A DNA stretch of 64,000 bases, taken from assembly GCA_964595465.1 (NCBI GenBank), contig CAZQQI010000006.1, forward strand, positions 655 to 64,654, written 5' to 3'. Each line of letters opens with the position of its first letter. Within the stretch, counting starts at the first letter, position 1. This DNA comes from an uncultured Planctomycetales bacterium (GTDB taxonomy: Bacteria; Omnitrophota; Gorgyraeia; Zapsychrales; JANLHA01). The position numbers were made by a program, and so were the translations under genes. Positions 1 to 43,894 of the stretch are shown here, piece by piece. The notes under the pieces were generated by a model. The model had not been told where the DNA came from. It searched no databases and saw nothing but the letters and a program-made list of their open reading frames with translations.

Positions 1-2
1 TG

Positions 3-236
3 GGAAGCCTGTTTGCCTACTGGCTGACCGGACCCGTGTGGAAACGCTGGCTGCTGTTTTTGTTTACCATCCCGATCGCGGTCATGACGAACGTGGTCCG
101 GGTGGTTTTTCTGTCCCTGATCGCCGAAATTTGGGGCCCGGGCGCCGCCGGCGGGATTATCCATGATATTTCCGGATTCGGAATTTTCGCGGTGGCGTTT
201 CTGCTGCTGCTTGCTGTCATGAAACTGATGGAGTAG
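3..236 (+). CDS. Exosortase (EpsH/Xrt family), C-terminal fragment; 5' end lies outside the window
   Basis: The frame is open from the window edge (…GSLFAYWLTGPVWKRWLLFLFTIPIAVMTNVVRVVF…). It shows hydrophobic terminal transmembrane helices with the conserved N..R motif (NVVRV) typical of the exosortase C-terminus. An EpsI gene follows immediately and PEP-CTERM cargo genes lie downstream. Confidence 0.7.
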   Translation, partial: GSLFAYWLTGPVWKRWLLFLFTIPIAVMTNVVRVVFLSLIAEIWGPGAAGGIIHDISGFGIFAVAFLLLLAVMKLME

Positions 237-238
237 GT

Positions 239-880
239 ATGGTAAAAAAGAGCCAAAATACATGTTTCGCTCTCCTGGCGGTGATTTTCACGGTCGTGAC
301 CATTCTGTCCTGGGCCTGGTATTTTAAAGCCGCACAGCAGAAGGATACCGTGAATATTCATGAGGCCTTTCCCATGGAGATCGGAGAATGGGTCGGCAAA
401 GAAATTCCTATTTCCGAAGATGATTATCAGATCCTGGAGAACCGCAACGCCTTTATAAGGATGTACCGCAATCCCGCCGGACAATGGGTCATGTTTTTCC
501 TGAATTATTCTCAGACCAACCGCAAGGCCGCTCACCCTCCCGAGATCTGCTTCAGCGGAGGAGGGGCGACCTTTACCGACCGTGAGCGTATTACAGTAGA
601 AGCCGGCAAAGGAGAAGAGATCGCTTTTAACCATGTCCTGGTGGATTTTCCGCGGTATCAGCAGGTGATGTACTACACATTCAAGTCCGGTGAAGAATTT
701 ATCCCCGGCTATCTCCGCCAGCAGATCAATGTCGTTCTCAAAACCGTGGGGAAGGGAGCTCCCAGCAGTTCACTGATCCGTCTGACCACAACGATCCGCA
801 ATGGTGATAAAAAAGCGGCAAACCGTCTCATCGAATCGTTTTTCCGCGACATTTACCCCCTCCTAAAAGACCTCCCGTAA
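239..880 (+). CDS. epsI: EpsI family protein (exosortase-associated, periplasmic)
   Basis: It starts 2 nt after the exosortase stop. It has an N-terminal transmembrane anchor and the conserved HPPEICFSGGG (H-x-PE-x-C) motif of the EpsI family. Confidence 0.7.
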   Translation: MVKKSQNTCFALLAVIFTVVTILSWAWYFKAAQQKDTVNIHEAFPMEIGEWVGKEIPISEDDYQILENRNAFIRMYRNPAGQWVMFFLNYSQTNRKAAHPPEICFSGGGATFTDRERITVEAGKGEEIAFNHVLVDFPRYQQVMYYTFKSGEEFIPGYLRQQINVVLKTVGKGAPSSSLIRLTTTIRNGDKKAANRLIESFFRDIYPLLKDLP

Positions 881-1303
881 AAAAATGGTGTCGGATCTCA
901 TAAGTCATTTCTTTCCAGTACTTTAGAATTAATTCAATTTTCATTACTCTTTTTTATTTAGAAGTTGCAAATCGAGTTTCGCAGCCGAATGGCTCATGGA
1001 GATCGGAAGGGGCGCGCAGAGCGAGTTCCGAACCGAACGATTCATTAGATAAACGTTCGGGAGGCTGTTTGAGCGAACGGGTCCCTCCTGATCTCTTTTA
1101 TTTTTATCTGATTGTCGTAATTCCTGCCAACGATGTCTCACTTAAACATTTGTTGTATCATTTCGACAAAAGAAAACGCTTTCTTTACATAGACAGTCAA
1201 TGACAATATGTGACAATACCAGCCAAAAAGCTCGAAATCGCTGAAATCCGGCATTATACGATGCGCTGGTCACAATTTTTTATTTCCAGAAATTTTCTGA
1301 CAT

Positions 1304-1319
1304 TGGCACGCTGTTTGCT
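1304..1319 (+). promoter_or_regulatory. Sigma-54 (RpoN) -24/-12 promoter: TGGCACG-N4-TTGCT
   Basis: A near-consensus TGGCACGctgtTTGCT lies about 30 nt upstream of the 1349 ATG, with the RBS aaggagaaag in between. A sigma-54-dependent NtrC-type regulator is encoded at 17033-18484 in the same window. Confidence 0.65.
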
Positions 1320-1348
1320 TCTTAGGAAGGTGAAGCAAGGAGAAAGTC

Positions 1349-2212
1349 ATGAAATTAAAAAACATATCCTCTAAAAAATTTGCAGCTGCCGCGTTTCTCA
1401 TGATGGCGGTGATTCTTATTCTGGGAACTACGGCCTACGCAACCTTGAGCCAATGGGAAAATTTTGATCTCGTTGAAACGTCGCTTACCCCCAATGTGCT
1501 AACTGCGTCCGATACCGGGGTGGCGGACCTTACTGCCGAGAATAAATCCCGGGCTCCCGAGCCCTCAACTATGGCTCTCTTGTTTACCGGCCTGTGCGGA
1601 GCTGTCGTGAGTTTTGTCCGCAAGACCTATCGCGCAACCAAACGTCTGCTTGATATTGCTGCCGGCATAACCGGCCTGATCGTTCTTTCACCCCTGTATG
1701 CCCTGGTTGCTTTGCTGATCAAATTGAGTTCGCGGGGGCCGGTATTTTATACCCAAACCCGGGTCGGGCAGTACGGCAGGGTGTTTACGATGTATAAATT
1801 CCGCACGATGAAAGTGGACGCGGAAAAAGAAACCGGAGCGGTCTGGGCAAAAGAAAGTGACGACCGCTTGATCCCGGTAGGGAAATTTCTGCGCAAGATG
1901 CATATTGACGAGATCCCGCAATTTGTGAACATATTGAAAGGGGATATGTCATTGATCGGTCCGCGTCCGGAGCGCCCTGAGTTTGTCGAAAAATTCAAGA
2001 CCGAAATACCGGAATATGAACGCCGGCTGATGGTCAAGCCCGGGTTGACCGGTTTGGCCCAGGTCCGTCATCATTATGACCGCACGATTGAGGATGTGCG
2101 CAAAAAAATTAAATTGGACTTACTCTATATTCGCAGGCTGTGTCTCTGGACCGATGTGCGCATCTTTTTTCGGACCTTTCGTGTGGTGCTGACGGGCGAA
2201 GGGGCCCACTGA
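1349..2212 (+). CDS. Chimeric protein: N-terminal signal peptide plus PEP-CTERM-like sorting motif/transmembrane helix, fused to a PglC/WbaP-C-type polyprenyl-phosphate sugar-phosphate transferase domain
   Basis: Residues 1-31 form a signal-peptide-like stretch (…TTAYA). Next comes an approximately 45-aa hydrophilic segment. Then …RAPEPSTMALLFTGLCGAVVSFVRK gives a PEP motif, a Gly-rich helix and a basic cluster. The canonical bacterial sugar transferase core follows (LLDIAAGITGLIVLSPLYALVALLIKLSSRGPVFYTQTRVG … KFRTM … DEIPQFVNILKGDMSLIGPRP … GLTGLAQV). Confidence 0.75.
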   Translation: MKLKNISSKKFAAAAFLMMAVILILGTTAYATLSQWENFDLVETSLTPNVLTASDTGVADLTAENKSRAPEPSTMALLFTGLCGAVVSFVRKTYRATKRLLDIAAGITGLIVLSPLYALVALLIKLSSRGPVFYTQTRVGQYGRVFTMYKFRTMKVDAEKETGAVWAKESDDRLIPVGKFLRKMHIDEIPQFVNILKGDMSLIGPRPERPEFVEKFKTEIPEYERRLMVKPGLTGLAQVRHHYDRTIEDVRKKIKLDLLYIRRLCLWTDVRIFFRTFRVVLTGEGAH

Positions 2213-2421: not shown

Positions 2422-3048
2422 ATGAAAGCGCTGAAAAATATGAAAAATTCCAACCGGGTCTATGTTCTGGGCGCCATGCTGGTAGGCGGGATTGTTCTAT
2501 TGATCCAGACCGGTGCGAGTGCCGTGTCCCTGAATCCTATTAATGGCCATTACTATGAGATCATAAGCGGGGAAACCGCGATCACCTGGGAACAGGCTAA
2601 TACACGGGCCAATAGTTCGGTTTTTGAAGGCCTGCAGGGGCATTTGGCAACGATCACTTCCCAGGAAGAAAATGATTGGCTCTCTAAAACCTTTGGAGCT
2701 TCTCATGCGGCCTGGCTGGGCGGGTATCAGGATAAAGAGGCCTTGGATTATGACGAGCCGGACGGCGGATGGCGCTGGGTAACAGGGGAAGAATGGGATT
2801 ACGCGCCCTGGGCGCCGGGTGAGCCAAATAACTGGGATCATGGTGATGATATCAATGAAGATAAGGTGCGTACTTGGCCGAATGATGGGCCGGAGATCGT
2901 AGTTAATGATGCTCCCAATGATCCCGGTACTCCGGTGGATAAGATCTACGTTGAGTACGAACCCGTGGCCACCCCGGAACCGGGCAGCATGGCTTTACTG
3001 GGGATCGGCTTATTAGGCGCGGCCGGATTCCGGCGTAAAAAGAAATAA
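2422..3048 (+). CDS. Secreted C-type lectin domain protein with C-terminal PEP-CTERM anchor
   Basis: It has a signal peptide. It carries the C-type lectin fold hallmarks NGHYYEI, TWEQA, LATITSQEENDWL, AWLGG and W.W..GE…W..GEPNN. The C-terminus is PEPGSMALLGIGLLGAAGFRRKKK. Confidence 0.75.
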   Translation: MKALKNMKNSNRVYVLGAMLVGGIVLLIQTGASAVSLNPINGHYYEIISGETAITWEQANTRANSSVFEGLQGHLATITSQEENDWLSKTFGASHAAWLGGYQDKEALDYDEPDGGWRWVTGEEWDYAPWAPGEPNNWDHGDDINEDKVRTWPNDGPEIVVNDAPNDPGTPVDKIYVEYEPVATPEPGSMALLGIGLLGAAGFRRKKK

Positions 3049-3078: not shown

Positions 3079-3723
3079 GTGCGGAAGATCTTTTTGACAA
3101 CATTGATGATGACATTCATCTACGCGGTGCCGTCCTGGGCGTTCCCTCTGGCCAATTTCGGTTTTGAGACCCGCGATACAACCGGGTGGACCGAAGAGCT
3201 GAATAACGGTCAGATTTTAGTGACGCCTTCGCATAATGGTAGTGATGACAGTGTGGTTTATTCACCTCAGGAAGGAAATTATTTTCTTCGCCTGCAGGCC
3301 GGTGCGGCCGATACTGTTGTGAACGTGTACCAGGATTTTTCTTTGTTCGCGGGTCAGTCGATCACGGGAATGGCCGCTTTTGATGCCCGGGATTATGATC
3401 CGTATAATGATCGGGCATTCGTTCAGATTTTTGAGGCTGGAACGGATTTTTCATCAACTCTGTGGGAGGCCAGTGTCCTGCAGGACGGGAATCATGTCAA
3501 CGCGCCCTGGGAAGAATGGCGATTTACCGCGGAAACTACGGGAGAGTATCGTTTAACGTATGGGGTTGTCAATGATGATGACGCATTAAACAGCAGTTAC
3601 GCTCTGTTTGACGCCCGGCAGGAGCCTGTTGTGCCGGAACCTGCGAGCATGATGCTGTTTGCAACCGGTTTATTGGGCGCGGCCGGCAGCCGTTTGCGGA
3701 GTGCACGAAAGAGAAGTTCATAA
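3079..3723 (+). CDS. PEP-CTERM sorting domain-containing secreted protein
   Basis: It starts at GTG with a GAAAG RBS. The signal peptide is MRKIFLTTLMMTFIYAVPSWA. The C-terminus is VPEPASMMLFATGLLGAAGSRLRSARKRSS. Confidence 0.65.
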   Translation: MRKIFLTTLMMTFIYAVPSWAFPLANFGFETRDTTGWTEELNNGQILVTPSHNGSDDSVVYSPQEGNYFLRLQAGAADTVVNVYQDFSLFAGQSITGMAAFDARDYDPYNDRAFVQIFEAGTDFSSTLWEASVLQDGNHVNAPWEEWRFTAETTGEYRLTYGVVNDDDALNSSYALFDARQEPVVPEPASMMLFATGLLGAAGSRLRSARKRSS

Positions 3724-3775: not shown

Positions 3776-4639
3776 ATGAAATGTTTCCAAGGAAAGGGAC
3801 AAAAAATGAAAAAATTACTTACAGCAATAGCCGTAGTTGCTCTGGCTCTGGCTGTGCCGTCCGCGGCATCTGCCTTCAGTCTGGGTGATTACACCGGCGG
3901 AGTGACATTTGACTTCGTGAATTGGGATGTCGGGACAACCTATGATGCCGATACTTCGTTTGAAGATGGGGCGGACGGCGATGCCGACAGTTTCGGACTG
4001 GTTCGTGTGGATACCATCGATGCTCTAGGCGGAAATCCTCTTTGGCAGTCAACAGCGGCCAATGAATCTCTGCAGGGTTGGTTTTATGGGTTAGACGATA
4101 ATACAGTAGATATCGGCTCCGACTATTCCGGCACGATTGAATCCATCGGCGGATATGTTGATCTGTATTTAGTTCAGGGAGGACAGACGTTGGATCCTTT
4201 GGCAGCTCCTGCTCCGACCACTCCGATGACGGGATTGTCAGCTCCTGCTGATCAGTGGAATGCCACTGACGGTGAATTATTCCTGCGCTTGGAGTTTGTA
4301 CCGGGTGTGGTTTCCAGCCAGAATTCTACGTATTTTCAGGATATAACAACGATTACTAATCCGGTCTTTGGGACTGGACAGGGATATCTGTCTGTTGTCG
4401 GAGGCAGCCACGCAGCGCTGTTTGACAGCAACGCCTATAATGATGTGTTTCCGAATGCAGATTTTTATTTTTCTGACAGCTTTGATGATAGAGGTCTGAC
4501 CGCTGAACAGCAAGAGAACGGCTGGACGGTCTTCAGTGACGGCAAAGTCACAGGAAAAGCTGTACCGGAACCCGCCACCATGATGCTTTTGGGTGTCGGC
4601 CTGGCAGGTGGCGCGCTGGTTCGCCGCCGTCGGTCATAA
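3776..4639 (+). CDS. PEP-CTERM sorting domain-containing secreted protein
   Basis: It has a signal peptide; an alternative ATG at 3806 gives MKKLL… with an equally good RBS. The body is Gly/Asp/Thr-rich. The C-terminus is VPEPATMMLLGVGLAGGALVRRRRS. Confidence 0.7.
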   Translation: MKCFQGKGQKMKKLLTAIAVVALALAVPSAASAFSLGDYTGGVTFDFVNWDVGTTYDADTSFEDGADGDADSFGLVRVDTIDALGGNPLWQSTAANESLQGWFYGLDDNTVDIGSDYSGTIESIGGYVDLYLVQGGQTLDPLAAPAPTTPMTGLSAPADQWNATDGELFLRLEFVPGVVSSQNSTYFQDITTITNPVFGTGQGYLSVVGGSHAALFDSNAYNDVFPNADFYFSDSFDDRGLTAEQQENGWTVFSDGKVTGKAVPEPATMMLLGVGLAGGALVRRRRS

Positions 4640-4689
4640 GCGTTAGAGCAAGACGTATAAGAAATTGACCTTTCCTTATACCATAAAGG

Positions 4690-4721
4690 GCATTCCGTCT
4701 TCGGGCGGGGTGCCTTTTTTT
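4690..4721 (+). terminator. Rho-independent terminator closing the PEP-CTERM gene run
   Basis: The sequence is GCATTCCGTC-TTCG-GGCGGGGTGC, with a UUCG tetraloop, followed by CTTTTTTT. Confidence 0.6.
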
Positions 4722-4732
4722 GAGCTTACTGC

Positions 4733-4762
4733 TTGCCAGACCGCCTGCAGGACCGCTATAAT
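4733..4762 (+). promoter_or_regulatory. Sigma-70-like promoter (TTGCCA-N18-TATAAT)
   Basis: -35 TTGCCA at 4733-4738, an 18-nt spacer, -10 TATAAT at 4757-4762. The GAGGAGGG RBS at 4774-4781 and the ATG at 4786 follow. Confidence 0.45.
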
Positions 4763-13917: not shown

Positions 13918-14796
13918 GTGATCATGACGACAAAATTCTCACCCGGACAGTTCTTTTCTTTGCTCCGTTCCGCAGTTCAGACCATCATTCACCATCCTCT
14001 TATCCTTTATCCTTTCACAATTTTATTTATGCTTCAGCTCTTCATTATGGAGATCCTGTTTTTTGCTCCACGCTATCCGTTATCGCAATTCTTTTCCCCG
14101 GTTATAAGCAGGCTTGCCGGAGAGCAGTTTCTGCATTATCCCTTAAATTTCATGCTTCTTAACCGCTGGTTTCAGAGTATTCAAATCCCCTTTTATCTGT
14201 TTGTGTCCTCGTTTTTTATCGGCGCTGCGGTTTACGCGATTTATTTGATCAATCGGGATGAAAACTTGAATTGGGGGAAGGTTTTCAAGAGGACGCTTAA
14301 GCAGTATATTCATTTGGTGGTAGCCGCGGCGATTTCGGTTGGTTTTGTGTATATCCTCAGCTGGCTTTATAGCCTGCTGGTGCAGCGCGCCTTGCAGATA
14401 CGCTCAACCGCGGGGATCTATTTTATGATCAAGAAGGCCGTGATCCTGGGCGCGCCCTATGCCAATTTATTATTTTCTACGTTGATCATTACTATGTTTG
14501 CGTTCGTTATTCCTATTATCATGATCGAGGGGAAAAAGGTTTTTTCAGCCTTTGCTCAAAATTTTAAGGTGCTTGGCGGGGTTTTCTGGATGTTATTCCT
14601 GGCGATGCTGGCATCCGGTTTGTTTTACCTCCCTGTCCTTTTATTGCGTTCCAACGCGGAGTGGGGCAGGAGCGTTTTTAGTCCGGAGATGTGGCAGATC
14701 CTCATGATCGCGGGTGTGGCCTTAATGCTCGTGATCGATGCCGTGCAGTATACCGCTATAACTATGACGTACTTGCTAAAAAAGGATGCGGAATGA
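13918..14796 (+). CDS. Polytopic membrane protein, function unknown
   Basis: It has about 7 predicted transmembrane helices and no recognisable catalytic motif. It overlaps the next gene by ATGA. Confidence 0.5.
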   Translation: MIMTTKFSPGQFFSLLRSAVQTIIHHPLILYPFTILFMLQLFIMEILFFAPRYPLSQFFSPVISRLAGEQFLHYPLNFMLLNRWFQSIQIPFYLFVSSFFIGAAVYAIYLINRDENLNWGKVFKRTLKQYIHLVVAAAISVGFVYILSWLYSLLVQRALQIRSTAGIYFMIKKAVILGAPYANLLFSTLIITMFAFVIPIIMIEGKKVFSAFAQNFKVLGGVFWMLFLAMLASGLFYLPVLLLRSNAEWGRSVFSPEMWQILMIAGVALMLVIDAVQYTAITMTYLLKKDAE

Positions 14797-15692
14797 AAAA
14801 GACACTTATCATCGGTTTGACGGTGCTGCTTGGATTGTTTGTGGTATTCACCGTTATGGATAAAAGCGATTATGCCCTTGAAAAAAGATTGTGGCGTGTG
14901 CAGAAGGATTTTACCGAGCTGTCGCAAGACCCTCAGTCAGCGCCGGCTGAGCAGTACGCGTCTCTTGCGCGGCGTTATCGCCGTCTGATCGAGAAATATC
15001 CGGATTCCCGTCTGGTCCCCATGATCTATCTGCAGATCAGCCGGCTTTACTTTATGCAGGAGGCCTATGACCGGGCGCGTGATATTCTGCAGGAATTGAA
15101 AGACCGATATCCTGACCGGAATGAACTCCAGGCCGAGGCTCTGCTTTATATCGGTAATGCCTATGAATCGGAAGGGGATTTTTCACAGGCAGTCAAGACC
15201 TATCAAAAGATACAGCAGCGCTATCCGCATACCGAATGGGGGATCGGCATGCCGCTGTATTTGGCTGATGTTTACTTGCGTGCCGGGAAGCTAGACGAGC
15301 ATCGGCAGGCGTTGGAAAACGCGGCCGCCTATTATCGCGGGATTGTCGCCGACGAAGGGGCGGATCTTGGGCATCAGCTTAGGGCCTACCGTTCGCTGGT
15401 GGCGGCTTACCTGGCTCAGGAAAAGTGGAATGACGCTGTTTCGGTTTTGAAAAATGCACTTTTCCGCTACGCAAAATCCGAATACCTGACGCCCCGGAGT
15501 GCGGGTGTTCTGATCCGCTCGATCGCTCAGATCAGTGTGACCCGGCTAGAGAACCCTGACCGCGCGATCGGGATTTATCAGGAGTTCATCCGTGAGCATC
15601 CGGATCACCCCTTGTCGCCTACGTTGAAGAAGCTGATCGCTGCTATGCAGCAGCAGGGCGTGACCCAAAACGGATTGCCGGAAGGCGAATAA
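14793..15692 (+). CDS. TPR repeat protein with N-terminal membrane anchor/signal
   Basis: The in-frame ATG at 14793 gives MKKTLIIGLTVLLGLFVVF… It contains multiple TPR-like helical repeats (…AEALLYIGNAYESEGDFSQAVKTYQKIQQRYP…). The ORF-track start at 14691 lies inside the previous gene. Confidence 0.6.
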   Translation: MKKTLIIGLTVLLGLFVVFTVMDKSDYALEKRLWRVQKDFTELSQDPQSAPAEQYASLARRYRRLIEKYPDSRLVPMIYLQISRLYFMQEAYDRARDILQELKDRYPDRNELQAEALLYIGNAYESEGDFSQAVKTYQKIQQRYPHTEWGIGMPLYLADVYLRAGKLDEHRQALENAAAYYRGIVADEGADLGHQLRAYRSLVAAYLAQEKWNDAVSVLKNALFRYAKSEYLTPRSAGVLIRSIAQISVTRLENPDRAIGIYQEFIREHPDHPLSPTLKKLIAAMQQQGVTQNGLPEGE

Positions 15693-15696
15693 TATT

Positions 15697-16998
15697 ATGA
15701 GTTCAGATGCCCTGCCGGATTATGTCCGACAACTTACGCAAACAGATCTTTTCAATCAGATCAGCGCGATCTGCGCCGCTGTTAATGAAGAGACGGATTC
15801 TGACGGTCTGTTAGAGGTGTCTCTCCAGCGGCTGCTGCGGCTGTTTGGTGCCCGGCGAGGATCGGTCTATATTTTCGACGAATCCCGAGAGGAATTGGTG
15901 CTGAAATCTGCTATCGGGCTGACGGTTGAAGAAGGCGATTATAAAATTAAGCGCCCGGGGGAGGGAGTGGTCGGAAAAGTTGCCGAACTCAAAAAGCCGA
16001 TCTTTGTTAAAGATATCTCCACTGACGAGCGTTTCGAAAATTATAAAGCGCGTTCAAGTTATGAGACGCCGTCGTTTTTGTGTGTTCCTCTTTTGGTTAA
16101 GGATGAACTGATCGGGGTGATCAACGTCGCGGATAAAGAATCGGGAACGCTGTTCGGCGAGGATGAACTGCAGTTGATGGATTTTCTGGCGGCTCAGATT
16201 GCACTGAATTACCGCAGGATCGCTTTATACCAAAATGTGCAGAACATTGTCGAACGTTCTCGTAAGCTCGAAGATGAACTGGGGCGGACCAGTGAAGAGC
16301 GCTCCCGTCTGAAGCGGCAGGTTGTCGTCCACGAACGTCTGGCTTCTATTGGGAAGCTGGCCGGAGGCATCGCTCATGAATTCAATAATCCGCTGGACGG
16401 AGTTATGCGCTATACACAGCTCTGTCTCCAGCAGGTCGGTGATGATGGGATCCTGCGGGGGTATTTGCTTGAGATTAAGCATGGCTTGAACCGCATGGCT
16501 AACATTGTCCGCAGTCTCCTGGCGTGTTCGCGGGGTGCGGCTCAGGGAGAAGAGAATACAATCCATCCTGAAGCGGCGATAGAGCAGGCCCTGCAGTCAA
16601 TCCAGACCGATGCTGTTCATAAAAATATTGACATAAAAATTAATGTCGACGCGGGATTGCCGGAAATGACCGATATGGGGCTGGAAAGGATTCTGGTCAA
16701 TCTCCTGCGCAACGCCGTTGAGGCTGTCGATAGCGGGGGAGAAGTAGGGGTTTCTGCCGGGTTAGAGGATGGGGGGCAGCTCGCGATCCGTATCTGGGAT
16801 GACGGTCCCGGCATCGCTGTTCCGGACGACCTTGATAAGATCTTTGAGCCGTTTTATACGACAAAGGATATTGAAAAGGGCTGCGGACTCGGGCTGACTA
16901 TTGTCGCTGAGATCGTAAAAATGTATGACGGAAAATTAACAGTCGAAAGCTATCCAGATAAAAAGACCGTATTTACTATCCGATTACCGGTCGCCTAG
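15697..16998 (+). CDS. Sensor histidine kinase, soluble, with GAF domain, HisKA and HATPase_c
   Basis: It has a GAF-like N-terminal half, the H-box HEFNNPLDG, and N/G boxes (LLRNAVEA, DDGPGI, GCGLGL). There are no transmembrane segments. Confidence 0.8.
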   Translation: MSSDALPDYVRQLTQTDLFNQISAICAAVNEETDSDGLLEVSLQRLLRLFGARRGSVYIFDESREELVLKSAIGLTVEEGDYKIKRPGEGVVGKVAELKKPIFVKDISTDERFENYKARSSYETPSFLCVPLLVKDELIGVINVADKESGTLFGEDELQLMDFLAAQIALNYRRIALYQNVQNIVERSRKLEDELGRTSEERSRLKRQVVVHERLASIGKLAGGIAHEFNNPLDGVMRYTQLCLQQVGDDGILRGYLLEIKHGLNRMANIVRSLLACSRGAAQGEENTIHPEAAIEQALQSIQTDAVHKNIDIKINVDAGLPEMTDMGLERILVNLLRNAVEAVDSGGEVGVSAGLEDGGQLAIRIWDDGPGIAVPDDLDKIFEPFYTTKDIEKGCGLGLTIVAEIVKMYDGKLTVESYPDKKTVFTIRLPVA

Positions 16999-17032
16999 TT
17001 GTTCCGGTTAGCTGCAACAGAAAGTGTGTGGT

Positions 17033-18484
17033 ATGGATAAAGAACATAAAAGCCGTTATAACGTGCTGATCGTTGATGATGAACCGCTGATCCGTGAATC
17101 ATTGTATGAATCTTTGCGTATTGACGGGTACCGTGCTCATATGGCCCCGACCGCTGAAGAGGCTATGGACATGATCCGTAAGATGGACATCTCGATCGTT
17201 TTGACTGATATGAAGCTGCCCGGACGAAGCGGCCTGGATTTAATATCCGATATTAAATTATATAACGAGGATATTGAGGTGATCCTGATCACAGGATTCG
17301 GTTCGATCGATACGGCAGTTGAAGCGATGCGTAAGGGCGCGGACGACTATATTACCAAGCCTGTGAACGACGAGGAGATCAAGCAGCGCATTGAAAAGAT
17401 CATCAATCATAAAATCGTAATGGAAGAGAACCGGCGTCTGCGTCAGCTCTTGGCAGATGCCAATCCCCGTTCCTGCGGAGAAATGCTGGGTGTCAGTGCG
17501 CCGATGCAGAAAGTGTATCACATCATCGAATCCGTGGCCAATTCCAATGCTACCATTTTGGTGACCGGGGAGAGCGGAACCGGAAAGGGTCTCGCTGCCC
17601 GGGCGATTCATGAACATGATGACTCCCGCCGGGATAAGCCGTTTGTCGAGGTCAGCTGCGGTGCCTTGTCTGAGACGCTTTTGGAAAGTGAGCTGTTCGG
17701 CCATGTTAAGGGTGCGTTTACCGGGGCGATCCGTGATAAGGAAGGGCGCTTTGAATACGCCCGTGGAGGAACAATATTCCTTGACGAGATTGACTCGTTT
17801 TCCCCAATGCTGCAGGTTAAGCTTCTCCGGGTTCTGCAGGATGGTGTTTTTGAGCGGGTGGGAGATAATGTGACGCGCAAAACCGACGCGCGCATTGTTG
17901 TCGCTACGAACAGGGATTTGCCGGAATTGGTCGAAAAGGGAGAATTCCGTGAAGACCTTTATTATCGTATCAATGTGATCGCCGTCCGCATGCCGCCGCT
18001 GAGAGAGCGTAAAGACGATCTGGAGATGCTGATTGAACATTTTGTCAATTTTTACAGTCAGAAAAACAAAAAGCAGATCAACGGCGTTTCCGATGATGTG
18101 ATCAAATTGTTCAGCCAATATCCCTGGCCGGGGAATATCCGTGAACTGGAAAATGCTATTGAGGGTGCTGTCATTATGTGCAAAGGCGATGAGATCGATC
18201 GCTGGGATATCCCGAGTTCTACAAAATTTGAACAGGCCGATCCCGGTCGGATAAAGATTGATGAAGCTGAACACGGCGGATCGGAAGAGAGCCAAGATCT
18301 TGAGGGCACGTCTTTGAAAGAGGCGATTCAGCGTCCGGAACGTGATCTGATCATTTCTGTTCTTGAAAGTTGTGATTGGAATCGAAATCAGGCTGCTGAG
18401 CGCCTGGAAATCAATCGGACGACACTCTACAATAAAATGAAAAAATACAACATCGAATTTAAAAAGCCCGGACGTTCTAAATGA
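17033..18484 (+). CDS. Sigma-54-dependent response regulator (NtrC family): receiver, AAA+ sigma-54 activator and Fis-type HTH domains
   Basis: The receiver has LIVDDEP…D. The AAA+ domain has GESGTGKGLAARAIH, the GAFTGA loop (KGAFTGA) and ESELFGH. The C-terminus is a Fis-type HTH (…AAERLEINRTTLYNKMKKY). ATG 17033 is the likely start; the ORF track's 17024 is GTG. Confidence 0.85.
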   Translation: MDKEHKSRYNVLIVDDEPLIRESLYESLRIDGYRAHMAPTAEEAMDMIRKMDISIVLTDMKLPGRSGLDLISDIKLYNEDIEVILITGFGSIDTAVEAMRKGADDYITKPVNDEEIKQRIEKIINHKIVMEENRRLRQLLADANPRSCGEMLGVSAPMQKVYHIIESVANSNATILVTGESGTGKGLAARAIHEHDDSRRDKPFVEVSCGALSETLLESELFGHVKGAFTGAIRDKEGRFEYARGGTIFLDEIDSFSPMLQVKLLRVLQDGVFERVGDNVTRKTDARIVVATNRDLPELVEKGEFREDLYYRINVIAVRMPPLRERKDDLEMLIEHFVNFYSQKNKKQINGVSDDVIKLFSQYPWPGNIRELENAIEGAVIMCKGDEIDRWDIPSSTKFEQADPGRIKIDEAEHGGSEESQDLEGTSLKEAIQRPERDLIISVLESCDWNRNQAAERLEINRTTLYNKMKKYNIEFKKPGRSK

Positions 18485-19509
18485 AGCGTTTAAACATTGA
18501 AAAATTCGCACGTCAGTATATTGACCGCGAACGCTGGGCGCCTGTTCTGTCCCGTTTTATTGAAGTTTTGAAGATAAATATGTTTGTCATTGACCGTGAG
18601 GGCCAGACGGTTATTCCGCCGGCCTCTAATGGCGGCCGCAAGGCGTTCGGTTCCCATTTATTAATGAGCGGCTTAGATAGGGGGCTGCGGGAGGAGCGCA
18701 AACGGGCGGGCCTTGGTCTTTTTGACCACTATGGTGATTATTTAGAATATACGGATCAACTGGGGTTTTCGGCATTCGCCGTGCCATTGGTGGTTGGTCG
18801 CATGCCGTTTGCTCACCTTATTGTTGGTCCAGTTTGCATGAGCCGGCGAGCGGATGCAGAGGAATGCCGGCAAAATTCGGAACGTTTGGGTATGGATCCG
18901 GATGCTGTTTGTGATGCTCTGCAGAATATCCGTGTGATGTCGCATCTTCAGCTGAAATCCGTGCTGGATCTTTTATCGTCAGTGACGCAGGAGTTTATTG
19001 TTTTGCGTTTGGAGAAAGGGGAGGCGGACGTAAAACGCCGTCCTGCCGAGAATCATCTTGGACGGCCCGTATTGCCGCAGGGCAAAGCGGGGAACGGTTT
19101 TCCACAAGAGGTTCTTACTATCGCGGCCCGTATCAGCGGGGCAGAAGCAGCGTCTTTGATGCTCTGGAGCGAGGAAGATAAGGCTCTTATTGTCGAGAGT
19201 GTTTGGGGGACGGCTCCTGGCAAGCCGGGTGCCAAGATGGGTCTGCATGATGGTATTTCAGGGCTGGTTTTGCGGCGGGGCAATGTTATGATGCTGCGCT
19301 CCGATGACGCACAGGATGATGAGGTTCGCCCGTATTTGAAGCGGCCCCAGATCCGGCAATCCGTAATCGTCCCGCTTTTCCATGAGAAACGTCCTGTTGG
19401 AGTTTTGAACGTCCACACGAAATCATCTGATAAAAATTTATTTCCTGCCGGTGACTCACTCAAATTGTTTGCCGAATCTATAAGCCCGCATTTTCATTTC
19501 ATTTCTTAA
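18481..19509 (+). CDS. Regulatory protein with C-terminal GAF domain (N-terminal PocR-like sensory region possible)
   Basis: It overlaps the response regulator stop by ATGA. The C-terminal half has a GAF-like pattern (…SLMLWSEEDKALIVESVWG…VIVPLFHEKRPVGVLNVH). Confidence 0.45.
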   Translation: MKRLNIEKFARQYIDRERWAPVLSRFIEVLKINMFVIDREGQTVIPPASNGGRKAFGSHLLMSGLDRGLREERKRAGLGLFDHYGDYLEYTDQLGFSAFAVPLVVGRMPFAHLIVGPVCMSRRADAEECRQNSERLGMDPDAVCDALQNIRVMSHLQLKSVLDLLSSVTQEFIVLRLEKGEADVKRRPAENHLGRPVLPQGKAGNGFPQEVLTIAARISGAEAASLMLWSEEDKALIVESVWGTAPGKPGAKMGLHDGISGLVLRRGNVMMLRSDDAQDDEVRPYLKRPQIRQSVIVPLFHEKRPVGVLNVHTKSSDKNLFPAGDSLKLFAESISPHFHFIS

Positions 19510-19740: not shown

Positions 19741-19816
19741 AAATAAAGGGAGGGTTGTTTAGAGCAAAAAATCAAAAAAACCATGACAAGAGGCAGCTTT
19801 TTTGTATAATAGAAAT

Positions 19817-20272
19817 ATGAAAGCCGGACGTCCGAAAAAAGTGCGCTATATCCAACAGATGCCGAAAACGGTTCTGTTCAGTCCCCGTGGAAATCCTGGG
19901 CGTCCGGATGAAGTTGAGCTGACGATCGAGCAGTTTGAGGCGATTAAGCTTGCCGATCATCAAGGATGCAGCCAGGAACAAGGCGCGACAGCTATGAAGA
20001 TCTCCAGGGCCGCGTTTGGGCGGATATTAAGAGATGCCCGTAAACGGCTTGCTGATGCCATCGTTAACGGTAAAGCCTTAAGGATCCGTATGGGTCAGGC
20101 TCAGATCGGGGTTCGTAGACGCGATGTTTCTCTTGAAGATCTGCGTAAAGAAGTCGCTCAGTTTAAACAGCGTAATCAGGAGTTGCTTAAGGTGCTGTCT
20201 TTAGAAAAAAAGCCTGGTGAAGAAGAGTCTGGTTCGATTTCTATTGAAAGGGCGCGCAGTTTTTCCGGATAG
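19817..20272 (+). CDS. DUF134/UPF0251 family predicted DNA-binding protein
   Basis: It shows the family N-terminus GRPKK.R…P….F.P and an HTH-like …AMKISRAAFGRILRDARKRLADAIVNG. The first ATG is 19817; the ORF track's 19802 is TTG and overlaps the -10. Confidence 0.6.
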   Translation: MKAGRPKKVRYIQQMPKTVLFSPRGNPGRPDEVELTIEQFEAIKLADHQGCSQEQGATAMKISRAAFGRILRDARKRLADAIVNGKALRIRMGQAQIGVRRRDVSLEDLRKEVAQFKQRNQELLKVLSLEKKPGEEESGSISIERARSFSG

Positions 20273-35287: not shown

Positions 35288-35364
35288 TGGTCGGAGCGGA
35301 CGGATTTGAACCGTCGACCCCTAGTACCCCATACTAGTGCGCTAGCCAGCTGCGCTACGCTCCG
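35288..35364 (-). tRNA. tRNA-Pro (anticodon GGG), CCA encoded
   Basis: It folds as a cloverleaf: acceptor CGGAGCG/CGCTCCG, anticodon stem CTAGT/ACTAG with loop ATGGGGT, T-arm GACGG-TTCAAAT-CCGTC. Confidence 0.85.
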
Positions 35365-43514: not shown

Positions 43515-43588
43515 TGGAGCGGGAGAAGGGAATCGAACCCTCGTATCCAGCTTGGAAGGCTGGTGTTCTGCCACTGAACTACTCCCGC
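43515..43588 (-). tRNA. tRNA-Gly (anticodon TCC), CCA encoded
   Basis: The reverse complement is GCGGGAGTAGTTCAGTGGCAGAAC…CCAGC-CTTCCAA-GCTGG…TTCGATT…CTCCCGCTCCA. Confidence 0.85.
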
Positions 43589-43632
43589 GAATAGGATATC
43601 CCTGAAAAGATTTTGGTGGGATGTATAAAAAA

Positions 43633-43715
43633 TGGGCAGGGGAGGATTCGAACCTCCGAAGCGCTGGCGCAACAGATTTACAGTCTGTCCTCGTTGACCA
43701 CTTGAGTACCTGCCC
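43633..43715 (-). tRNA. tRNA-Tyr (anticodon GTA), long variable arm, CCA not encoded
   Basis: The reverse complement is GGGCAGG…ACAGA-CTGTAAA-TCTGT plus a long variable arm, then GGAGG-TTCGAAT-CCTCC-CCTGCCCA. Confidence 0.85.
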
Positions 43716-43818
43716 GTGAAATAAAAAAGTTATAAAAGAACTGGGGCTTCCCCCTCACCCCCTGTGGTCGGGGTGGTATGTAATCTGTAAGAACATCTAT
43801 TACAATAACATTCATATC

Positions 43819-43894
<76 letters not shown>

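Follow-up and report, generated by a model that had tools for sequence, protein, structure and literature searches.

The spacer between epsI and a polyprenyl glycosylphosphotransferase gene in an Omnitrophota MAG contains a predicted sigma-54 (RpoN) promoter which, judged by its sequence, is genuine and evolutionarily conserved. It is likely that this promoter drives the transferase, and probably also three PEP-CTERM protein genes downstream of it, by way of an enhancer made of TGTC repeats and of an NtrC-type activator encoded at the same locus. The promoter is probably what switches on an operon for surface-polysaccharide and PEP-CTERM proteins. By the window we mean the whole 64-kb stretch of DNA that was analyzed, and all coordinates, collected in Table 1, refer to it.

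Table 1. Features of the locus, in window coordinates, with the basis for each assignment.
Feature	Position	Strand	Basis
Upstream genes: exosortase 3′ end (to 236) and epsI (239-880)	1-880	+	TIGR02914, PF11984
epsI/transferase intergenic spacer	881-1348 (468 bp)	.	ORF map and sequence
GC-rich imperfect hairpin (998-1096) followed by TTTTATTTTTAT	998-1108	+	fold and inverted repeat I1
Candidate enhancer (UAS): half-sites TGTCA, TGTCA, TGTCT at a 10-bp period	1191-1215	-	pattern search, conservation
Predicted sigma-54 (RpoN) promoter TGGCACG-ctgt-TTGCT (TGGCACGCTGTTTGCT)	1304-1319	+	exact consensus match
Predicted transcription start (~1330) and short 5′ UTR	1330-1348	+	standard -24/-12 geometry, sequence
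Polyprenyl glycosylphosphotransferase (Bac_transf), first gene of the unit	1349-2212	+	TIGR03025, PF02397
Three PEP-CTERM protein genes	2422-3048, 3079-3723, 3776-4639	+	PF07589 matches
Terminator-like hairpin and T7	4688-4721	+	probable end of the sigma-54 unit
Sigma-70-like promoter for the next gene	4733-4762	+	11/12 matches
TPR protein, immediately 5′ of the kinase	14691-15692	+	TPR Pfam matches
Cytoplasmic GAF-HisKA-HATPase histidine kinase	15697-16998	+	Pfam domains
NtrC-family sigma-54 activator: REC, AAA+ with GAFTGA, HTH_8	17024-18484	+	Pfam, NCBIfam
PocR-GAF sensory protein	18481-19509	+	Pfam; conserved 3′ of the activator in relatives
DUF134 putative DNA-binding protein	19802-20272	+	Pfam; conserved 3′ of the activator in relatives

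The promoter and the spacer that holds it

The spacer runs from the EpsI stop codon at 878-880 to the ATG of the transferase at 1349, so that it begins at 881 and not at 887, where the initial annotation had placed its start. It is AT-rich (~32-40% GC), apart from one GC-rich island (~965-1095), and it appears to be regulatory DNA that is for the most part untranscribed. The same annotation had called it a leader, which is a misnomer because the predicted transcript begins near 1330, 12 nt past the C of the -12 element, and would have a 5′ UTR of only ~19 nt. The small mechanical ORFs inside the spacer were rejected as spurious, as the DNA beneath them is not conserved in the orthologous spacers. 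An Rfam search of the spacer with E-values up to 10 returned only noise, with no family matched, and a scan of the whole window at the gathering thresholds returned four tRNAs and nothing else.

The promoter had been described as a near-perfect RpoN motif, and it turns out to be an exact one. Its -24 GG (1305-1306) and -12 GC (1317-1318) doublets are 10 nt apart, and it is the single exact match to TGGCACG-N4-TTGCW in the window. When we scan both strands of the 64 kb with a weighted matrix (our own approximation of the published consensus), this site comes out on top with 18.7 bits, the runner-up scoring 4.5 bits lower, and a score of 18.7 bits is attained anywhere in only 1 of 100 shuffles. 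The other sites in the window with at least 9 bits are all either intragenic or in the wrong orientation. Our site is correctly oriented and lies in true intergenic DNA. The motif ends 29 nt before the ATG, and a Shine-Dalgarno sequence (AAGGAG) is found in this interval at 1337-1342. A search for the RpoN-box found no match in the window or in the related loci that we fetched; these are genome fragments, and the negative carries no weight.

Could the motif be just a chance match in AT-rich DNA, with the transferase owing its expression to a sigma-70-type promoter, or else to read-through of the exosortase-epsI transcript? Motif counting alone is weak evidence for a promoter: when one mismatch is allowed, 40 of 100 shuffled windows hold at least one match. 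There is also a weak sigma-70-like site at 1190-1217 with 9/12 matches; against that, one such site was found where 1.0 is expected by chance. A hairpin with a run of Ts stands between epsI and the promoter, in the path of any read-through. Taking these together with the exact consensus, the top score in the window, the right place and orientation, and above all the conservation in all 8 orthologues, whose spacers cannot be aligned, we regard a chance match as very improbable.

That hairpin (998-1096) folds with -49.5 kcal/mol and a z-score of only -1.46; the tests of the GC-rich hairpin gave z-scores of -1.46 and -2.07. We found no further copies of it in the window or in the related loci, and it is not conserved in the relatives. 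Weak z-scores, no copies and no conservation led us to reject it as a structured RNA or a repeat element. A simple terminator scan did not pick it up either. With low confidence, it is probably where the exosortase-epsI transcript stops, as its intrinsic terminator or as its 3′ end, and it would shield the sigma-54 unit from that transcript.

Comparison with relatives provides the strongest case for the promoter. All 8 of the orthologous transferase loci that we found have an equally strong sigma-54 site in the same position. In 1.03 Mb of sequence from 160 related loci, the five best sigma-54 scores all belong to sites 29-38 nt before the estimated gene starts of those five full-length orthologues that are closest to ours, and the distance from motif to start in the orthologues is 31-85 nt. 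Two more orthologues were reached independently by way of the activator, and their sites score 19.7 bits (L169) and 18.0 bits (L170). Outside of the promoter and the TGTC elements described below, the spacer has no nucleotide similarity to the orthologous spacers, and the DNA flanking the conserved promoter cannot be aligned between orthologues. This is the logic of phylogenetic footprinting: the promoter can be taken as real because it has been kept in 8/8 orthologous loci while the DNA around it has become unalignable. Two transferases with 45-47% identity, from loci labelled 'Clostridia' (L003) and 'Elusimicrobia' (L004), have no sigma-54 site in their upstream regions; the gene upstream of them is not the same as here, and the promoter is of the TTGACA type and is accompanied by a hairpin. 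The sigma-54 arrangement is therefore clade-specific.

The TGTC repeats and their candidate activator

The initial annotation proposed that the AT-rich region could hold enhancer sites (UAS) in the form of inverted repeats. An enhancer-like element is indeed there, at 1192-1215, but not in that form: the spacer does have inverted repeats, none of which is conserved, and the conserved element is a direct repeat. On the + strand it reads as three GACA tetramers (1192-1195, 1202-1205 and 1212-1215), and their 10-bp spacing puts all three half-sites on one face of the helix. Counted back from the -24 T, the block begins at 112 nt and ends at 89 nt, which is about -139 to -115 relative to the predicted start. 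We propose this TGTC triple as a newly recognised candidate enhancer.

The repeats are rare in the background and recurrent at the promoters. The pair TGTCM-N5-TGTCM occurs in 6/6 of the initial leaders, while the background has 3 matches per ~1 Mb, or 0.0008 per 250 bp. The triple at the 10-bp period has 0 matches in 1.06 Mb of background and control DNA. Of the 7 promoters then known, 5 carry it, and so does L169, which was found later. The repeat pattern was fixed first, and the promoters of L166, L169 and L170 were looked at afterwards, with the fixed pattern recovered at all three. In total, the TGTC block is found at 9/9 related promoters, and it can be on either strand, which is what one expects of an enhancer. 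Six loci have its start 111-116 nt before the -24 T; in the remaining three the start is at -124, -136 or -142. One of these promoters, that of L166, lies beyond the 8 transferase loci; there, the same composite element of sigma-54 site and repeats precedes an ordinary 95-aa PEP-CTERM lipoprotein gene that adjoins the regulator operon. We found no TGT-N10/11-ACA dyad within the block, and exact IHF matches between enhancer and promoter exist in only 2/7 loci, with none in the window.

Which protein reads the repeats? The most likely candidate is the NtrC-type activator of Table 1, which the initial annotation had reported together with a GAF kinase; both are there. We place the start of the activator at 17024, and the NCBI gene model has it at 17033. 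Its domains (PF00072, PF00158 with 222 bits, PF25601 and PF02954) form the architecture of an NtrC-family response regulator (bEBP), with the GAFTGA motif, the Walker A and the receiver Asp all intact in the translation, and it is the sole sigma-54 activator within the window. The kinase, which lies directly 5′ of the activator in 8 genomes, is presumed to be its sensor partner. The gene order TPR, GAF-kinase, activator and PocR-GAF is also kept in 8 genomes. In the genome of L001 the regulatory block and the target operon share a contig, and the two are only ~4 kb apart in L169 and L170.

Alternatively, the promoter would be real and the TGTC repeats would be read by some other protein: DUF134, an unlinked regulator of the OmpR/PhoB type, a repressor or an architectural protein. 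The activator, either the linked NtrC-type one or a distant one, would then work from a different site or from solution. Direct repeats with a period of 10-11 bp are the hallmark of response regulators of the winged-helix type, and they are less usual than inverted repeats for the Fis-type dimers of HTH_8. DUF134 is conserved in the regulatory block. The recognition helix of the activator is at least 90% conserved in 120 orthologues and invariant among the relevant genomes, and it is generic for the NtrC family, hence its conservation is weak evidence for these particular repeats. Finally, L166 has a second dense TGTC cluster (1829-1875) that abuts a sigma-70-like promoter, TTGACA-N17-TAGCAT, with no sigma-54 site, a hint that the protein binding the repeats might not be the sigma-54 activator.

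On the other side, a sigma-54 promoter requires an enhancer-binding activator, and the enhancers of the NtrC/glnAp2 and NifA type are situated ~100-150 bp upstream, are independent of orientation, and reach the sigma-54 holoenzyme by DNA looping. Our repeats are at that canonical distance at 9/9 promoters, on either strand. The linked activator retains its HTH_8 domain, and the window has no gene for an OmpR-type regulator. Moreover, activators that use tandem direct repeats are documented. As an example, Nla28 of Myxococcus xanthus is an NtrC-like activator that uses clusters of 3-5 imperfect tandem 8-bp direct repeats upstream of -24/-12 promoters (PMC9765219). The likeness is one of architecture only, because the half-site of Nla28 is CT[C/G]CG[C/G]AG and not TGTCM, and the spacing, organism and regulon are different as well. 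The sites of NtrC/glnAp2, NifA and PilR differ from ours in being inverted repeats for symmetric dimers, instead of direct-repeat half-sites. We also considered the tandem TGTC sites as PilR-like and discarded the idea beyond a loose analogy, since the published PilR sites are TGT-N11-ACA with nearby GTCT elements (PMC8035640, PMC6058289). All considered, we find it unlikely that another protein is the reader of the repeats, and we proceed with the linked activator as their probable partner.

The predicted operon and how it may be switched on

The locus has a PEP-CTERM/exosortase system, with exosortase, EpsI and PEP-CTERM substrate genes all found; TIGR03694 is matched as well (159.6 bits vs. 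a cut-off of 111.95). EpsI matches TIGR02914 with 81.1 bits (cut-off 42.8) as well as PF11984, and the full-length exosortase, whose sequence was taken from L161, matches TIGR02602 with 173.7 bits (cut-off 105.55). The first gene of the sigma-54 unit matches PF02397 and TIGR03025 (305.4 bits vs. a cut-off of 295.55). This transferase is chimeric: in its N-terminal extension there is a segment that resembles a signal peptide, as well as an internal PEP-CTERM motif at residues 69-92, and its N-terminal 100 aa score 23.7 bits vs. 20.7 against PF07589, with similar results in two orthologues.

The three PEP-CTERM genes have no sigma-54 site of their own upstream of 2422, 3079 or 3776, and PEP-CTERM genes come after the transferase in most of the orthologous loci. 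We infer that the three genes are probably co-transcribed with the transferase from the sigma-54 promoter. L169 and L170 have clear hairpin/T-run terminators at the place equivalent to 4688-4721. The extent of the operon is uncertain, because there is a weak hairpin at 2233-2253, just past the transferase gene, where transcription may stop with only that gene transcribed.

Based on these elements, we can propose how the unit may work. As for all sigma-54 promoters, this one would give no transcript before an AAA+ enhancer-binding protein has acted on it. The GAF kinase would phosphorylate the activator, and the adjoining PocR-GAF and TPR proteins may modulate the signalling by kinase and activator. 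The activator would then oligomerise at the tandem TGTC sites, ~125 bp upstream of the predicted start, and the AT-rich DNA between enhancer and promoter would loop so that the activator meets the sigma-54 holoenzyme at -24/-12. ATP hydrolysis would open the promoter, with transcription starting near 1330 and ending near 4721.

The regulon need not stop at this operon. Orthologues of the activator with more than 60% identity are found by the hundreds in Omnitrophota, far more commonly than the chimeric transferase, and three activator neighbourhoods (L164, L167 and L168) have no composite element within 10 kb. Thus, the regulon of the activator is not limited to the transferase operon, and it may not be centered on it.

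Omnitrophota are, to our knowledge, a phylum without cultured representatives, and for uncultured organisms the prediction of cis-regulatory elements is one of the few ways to approach physiology. The composite element, with 0 background matches in ~1 Mb, is specific enough to be used as a search pattern for the regulon across the phylum. The practical value is modest, and a known paradigm is refined here rather than overturned.

Comparison with known systems

Haft et al. predicted in 2006 that sigma-54 controls PEP-CTERM genes. They described a sigma-54 motif and an upstream activator site before the PEP-CTERM genes of Proteobacteria, and only there, and they expected further regulatory proteins and motifs to be discovered (PMC1569441). 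Is our locus a plain member of that XrtA/PrsK-PrsR-PrsT 'PEP-CTERM box' regulon? The initial annotation heard an echo of PrsK/PrsR in it, and as an analogy of architecture the echo is real. In both cases a -24/-12 promoter and a putative activator site lie in long non-coding DNA before PEP-CTERM genes, and an NtrC-type regulator, a kinase and a TPR protein, in a similar gene order, are grouped near exosortase/EPS genes (PMC1569441).

As membership, the analogy fails at every model cut-off: PrsR (TIGR02915) scores 395.1 vs. 502.6 bits, PrsK (TIGR02916) 83 vs. 300, PrsT (TIGR02917) 24.5 vs. 312.2, and XrtA (TIGR03109) 170.9 vs. 208, with no exosortase subtype model passed. The AtoC model, with 432.1 bits, fits the activator better than the PrsR model does. 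The PrsK kinase is transmembrane and PrsT is a lipoprotein, whereas here the kinase is soluble, with a GAF domain and a layout that leaves no room for a membrane domain, and the TPR protein occupies the position of PrsT yet, by its sequence, is not a PrsT orthologue. The PocR-GAF and DUF134 proteins are additions with respect to PrsKRT. The cis elements are also different. Motif 1 of Haft et al. is a 17-nt element ending in TTTACA, ~63 nt away from the sigma-54 motif, and in our case we have 3 x TGTC ~112 nt away. Comparing only the TTTACA end (the full 17-nt logo being a figure), we find it 32-92 nt upstream of the sigma-54 motif in 0/9 leaders, and the window's single copy (1184-1189) lies too far off, at 114 nt. 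Our unit opens with a glycosyltransferase that has a PEP-CTERM motif inside it and is not a single-gene PEP-CTERM operon, and the host belongs to the Omnitrophota, with the published motif found only in Proteobacteria (PMC1569441). We give plain membership next to no probability.

What the locus would represent is a non-proteobacterial version of the sigma-54 control known for PEP-CTERM genes in Proteobacteria. The promoter, the 3 x TGTC enhancer and the linked candidate two-component system would be one case of the regulators and motifs left to discover in 2006 (PMC1569441). More tentatively, and with considerable doubt on our part, Omnitrophota might have evolved independently a counterpart of PrsKRT, composed of a GAF kinase, an NtrC-type activator, a PocR-GAF co-sensor and a triple-repeat enhancer, with a transferase that is itself an exosortase substrate as the main target. 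If so, one sigma-54 switch would serve both the initiation of a polysaccharide and the proteins anchored to it, and exosortase cleavage of the periplasmic N-terminal segment of the transferase would couple protein sorting to polysaccharide synthesis.

Experimental proof of principle comes from pepA of Aquincola tertiaricarbonis, a PEP-CTERM gene with a TGGCAC...TGC-type promoter like ours, for which RpoN1 dependence was established by mapping the start site and by use of an rpoN mutant (PMC9850573), where our case is made from sequence. The EPS biosynthesis genes of Aquincola are reported to be independent of RpoN1 (PMC9850573). Here, on the other hand, the promoter stands directly before the priming glycosyltransferase, so that sigma-54 would control the very initiation of the polysaccharide. 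An all-or-none sigma-54 switch would then govern the first committed step in the synthesis of a surface polysaccharide, beyond the proteins associated with it.

The sigma-54 site and its conservation

Counting motifs by itself proves little about a promoter. The sigma-54 (RpoN) consensus TGGCACG-N4-TTGCW has a single exact match in the window, at 1304-1319, and when one mismatch is allowed, 40 of 100 dinucleotide shuffles contain at least one match somewhere. For this reason, we ran a position-weight matrix, our own approximation of the published consensus and not a curated one, over every position of either strand. The same site has the top score in the 64 kb (18.7 bits, 4.5 bits over the runner-up), a value attained anywhere in just 1 of 100 shuffles, and the remaining sites in that scan, down to about 10 bits, are all intragenic.

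The motif ends 29 nt before the ATG of a priming sugar transferase gene, with a Shine-Dalgarno AAGGAG at 1337-1342. From the standard -24/-12 geometry, transcription is predicted to start near 1330, so that about 19 nt would be transcribed before the ATG. That leaves little to be called a leader, the label used in the initial annotation; the 468-bp spacer is upstream regulatory DNA. The hairpin within it probably terminates the exosortase-epsI transcript; it is lineage-specific, unrepeated, without a match to any Rfam family, and statistically unremarkable.

We scanned a footprinting set of 160 loci with transferase relatives (1.03 Mb) using the same matrix. The top five scores (16.8-18.3 bits) lie 29-38 nt 5′ of estimated start codons and belong to the closest full-length orthologues (loci L082, L001, L083, L081, and L002), all five with epsI upstream. 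Two other orthologues, reached independently via activator homologues, carry the sites TGGCACGGTATTTGCT (L169, 19.7 bits) and TGGCACGCATATTGCT (L170, 18.0 bits). A near-consensus site is found at the equivalent position in 8/8 orthologous transferase genes, while BLAST of the window spacer against the orthologous spacers reports no further similarity. A site kept while the spacers are otherwise dissimilar is the signature of a functional one. The near-perfect promoter that the initial annotation had placed before the transferase thus stands, and these comparisons make it very likely functional.

The sigma-54 site is absent in L003 and L004, which have more distant transferases and a different upstream gene. 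Their leaders (L003 3840-3915, L004 3745-3800) share a conserved TTGACA element, then a perfect hairpin (gagattaactgaac...gttaatctc) and a T-run, an arrangement that looks like an attenuator or terminator; they also have a small conserved upstream ORF. In Zixibacteria/GN15 loci we observe sigma-54-like sites TGGCAA-N5-TTGCT (L005 3672-3687, L021 3672-3687, L057 904-919, L011 3663-3678), 36-58 nt 5′ of the start codon of transferase homologues without a PEP-CTERM motif, and a different common motif about 200 bp upstream (TGCGCAA-N5-TTGCA-like). Sigma-54 control of the transferase family may thus reach a second phylum, with another enhancer.

Features of the locus (window positions unless a related locus is named; bit scores as score vs. 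model value)
Feature	Position	Details
Exosortase gene end, then epsI	239-880 (epsI)	TIGR02914, 81 vs. 42.8 bits; upstream of spacer
Intergenic spacer	881-1348	468 bp; holds the promoter, which faces the ATG at 1349
Imperfect hairpin	998-1096, region to 1108	GC-rich, 99 nt, T-rich tail TTTTATTTTTAT; within AT-rich spacer
Candidate enhancer tetramers	1192-1195, 1202-1205, 1212-1215	GACA on + strand; minus-strand reading TGTCAcatatTGTCAttgacTGTCT
Sigma-54 motif	1304-1310, 1315-1319	TGGCACG, ctgt, TTGCT; + strand; read from sequence
Polyprenyl glycosylphosphotransferase	1349-2212	TIGR03025, 305 vs. 295.6 bits; PF02397
Three PEP-CTERM proteins		3′ of transferase
Acyl ligases and acyltransferases		Further downstream; include TIGR03694 'PEP-CTERM/exosortase system-associated acyltransferase', 159.6 vs. 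112 bits
Lol-like ABC transporter, TPR protein, GAF histidine kinase		Next along, followed by the three genes below
NtrC-type activator	17024-18484	REC, sigma-54-interaction AAA+, HTH_8
PocR-GAF sensory protein	18481-19509	Overlaps activator stop codon
DUF134 putative DNA-binding protein	19802-20272	3′ of PocR-GAF gene
~90-aa PEP-CTERM family	L081 2853-3122; L083 3590-3889; L169 6418-6699; L170 6381-6662; L166 6402-6689	Members in related loci

Tandem TGTC repeats upstream of the promoter

The initial annotation had suggested that the upstream region could carry enhancer sites. Aligning the leaders on the promoter reveals a common element about 100 bp upstream. The pattern TGTCM-N5-TGTCM, which was defined by eye, is present in 6/6 leaders; elsewhere it matches 3 times in about 1 Mb of other loci and once more in the window. 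In register, the instances are three TGTC tetramers on one strand with an exact 10-bp period; of the 7 promoters then known, 5 have this triple, which has no matches in 1.06 Mb of background. Once the pattern had been defined, three more promoters were examined (L166, L169, L170), and each of them has the pattern.

Measured from the -24 T, the block begins 111-116 nt upstream in six loci; for the other three loci the values are -124, -136, and -142. The window, L081, and L166 have the block in minus orientation, the remaining loci in plus orientation. Sigma-54 enhancers are expected to be independent of position and orientation, and the block behaves in just this way. A candidate for the suggested sites therefore exists and is shared by related promoters; we consider it likely, with good confidence, that it serves as the enhancer. 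In L166, promoter and repeats together precede a different gene, for a 95-aa lipoprotein with a terminal PEP-CTERM signal, directly upstream of a TPR/kinase/activator operon. This composite thus reads as a control module for PEP-CTERM genes and not as a single-gene oddity.

The probable target genes and the candidate activator

Most orthologous loci have PEP-CTERM genes 3′ of the transferase, and in the window no downstream PEP-CTERM gene has its own sigma-54 site in the matrix scan. A weak hairpin after the first gene (2233-2253) could attenuate transcription; at 4688-4721 a hairpin with T7 is followed by a strong sigma-70-like promoter. The transferase itself has an N-terminal extension (residues 1-95) with a signal-peptide-like segment, a periplasmic stretch of about 40 residues, and, immediately ahead of the Bac_transf membrane helix, an internal PEP-CTERM motif, APEPSTMALLFTGLCGAVVSFVRK. 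This motif scores above the Pfam gathering threshold (23.7 vs. 20.7 bits), as it does in two orthologues, and is conserved in all orthologues (L001, L002, L081-L083, L169, L170). With an exosortase signal inside the enzyme and not at its C-terminus, exosortase may process the transferase itself.

The related loci also encode PEP-CTERM proteins of one conserved family, about 90 aa long, Gly-rich in the middle and with a terminal ...(I/L)xNPEPAT(M/L)...; their genes either lie 3′ of the transferase or bear the composite promoter themselves. The window has none; it has three larger ones instead, one with a weak C-type lectin match. Four minus-strand tRNA genes (35288-35364, Pro-GGG; 43515-43894, Gly-TCC, Tyr-GTA, Thr-TGT) are nothing unusual.

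Which protein would read the repeats? The NtrC-type activator with a GAF histidine kinase described in the initial annotation is borne out: the domains are there, and the GAFTGA loop, Walker A motif, and receiver aspartate of the activator are all intact. It is the only sigma-54 activator in the window, and beyond about 21 kb there is no other transcription factor of recognisable class; housekeeping and unrelated glycosyltransferase genes lie there. The window itself belongs to a Candidatus Omnitrophota MAG, GCA_046542295.1, where it begins at position 655 of contig JBKHBP010000005.1. Orthologues of the activator (60-71% identity) are common in Omnitrophota, and 8/8 neighbourhoods examined have an unknown protein of about 290 aa, TPR, GAF kinase, activator, and PocR-GAF, mostly then DUF134. 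The conservation of PocR-GAF and DUF134 alongside the kinase/activator pair points to a signalling module that goes beyond two components.

One contig of the L001 genome holds both this block and a sigma-54-driven transferase. L169 and L170 have the order exosortase, epsI, spacer, transferase, small PEP-CTERM gene, terminator, regulatory block, so that target and activator are about 4 kb apart. Across 120 orthologues, conservation of the recognition helix, INRTTLYNKMKKYNI, reaches at least 90%, after a hypervariable linker; this fits a conserved DNA target weakly, since the helix is generic for the family. The activator is far more widespread than the chimeric transferase, and in three of its neighbourhoods the composite was not found within 10 kb, so its regulon would be wider than the transferase operon, or lie elsewhere in those genomes.

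Fis-type HTH dimers do not usually target direct repeats, so the DUF134 protein or an unlinked regulator might bind these instead. L166 also has a second dense TGTC cluster (region 1829-1916), between an IS (rve) gene and a FeeM-like acyltransferase gene, before a sigma-70-like promoter (TTGACA-N17-TAGCAT) and with no sigma-54 site; the TGTC-binding protein could thus act at a sigma-70 promoter too. However, there is a precedent in Nla28 of Myxococcus, which works with clusters of 3-5 tandem direct repeats (PMC9765219). We regard a different reader as unlikely, and favor, with moderate confidence, the linked activator.

Relation to known PEP-CTERM regulation

Judged on sequence, the sigma-54 promoter is real and conserved; it comes with a newly defined putative enhancer of tandem repeats, and synteny links it to a candidate two-component activator. 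None of the papers covered by a literature search connects Omnitrophota to exosortase, PEP-CTERM, or sigma-54. In Proteobacteria, Haft et al. (2006) reported, 5′ of PEP-CTERM genes, a 'motif 1' of 17 nt with TTTACA at its end, followed by a spacer of about 63 nt and a sigma-54 motif, and co-occurring with PrsK, PrsR, and PrsT; they found the shared motif in Proteobacteria only, and expected more regulators and motifs (PMC1569441). RpoN dependence was demonstrated later for pepA of Aquincola, whose EPS biosynthesis genes are apparently RpoN1-independent (PMC9850573).

The echo of PrsK/PrsR proposed in the initial annotation holds for the way the locus would work, but not for membership. The proteins of the locus score below the model cut-offs (PrsR 395 vs. 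502.6 bits, PrsK 83 vs. 300, PrsT 24.5 vs. 312, XrtA 171 vs. 208), and 0/9 leaders have TTTACA in the spacer range of Haft et al. Unlike in the proteobacterial system, the locus has a soluble GAF-domain kinase, the candidate enhancer has another sequence at another distance, and the priming glycosyltransferase itself would come first among the regulated genes. To a specialist this would be no surprise: it carries the PEP-CTERM/sigma-54 paradigm neatly over to an uncultured phylum.
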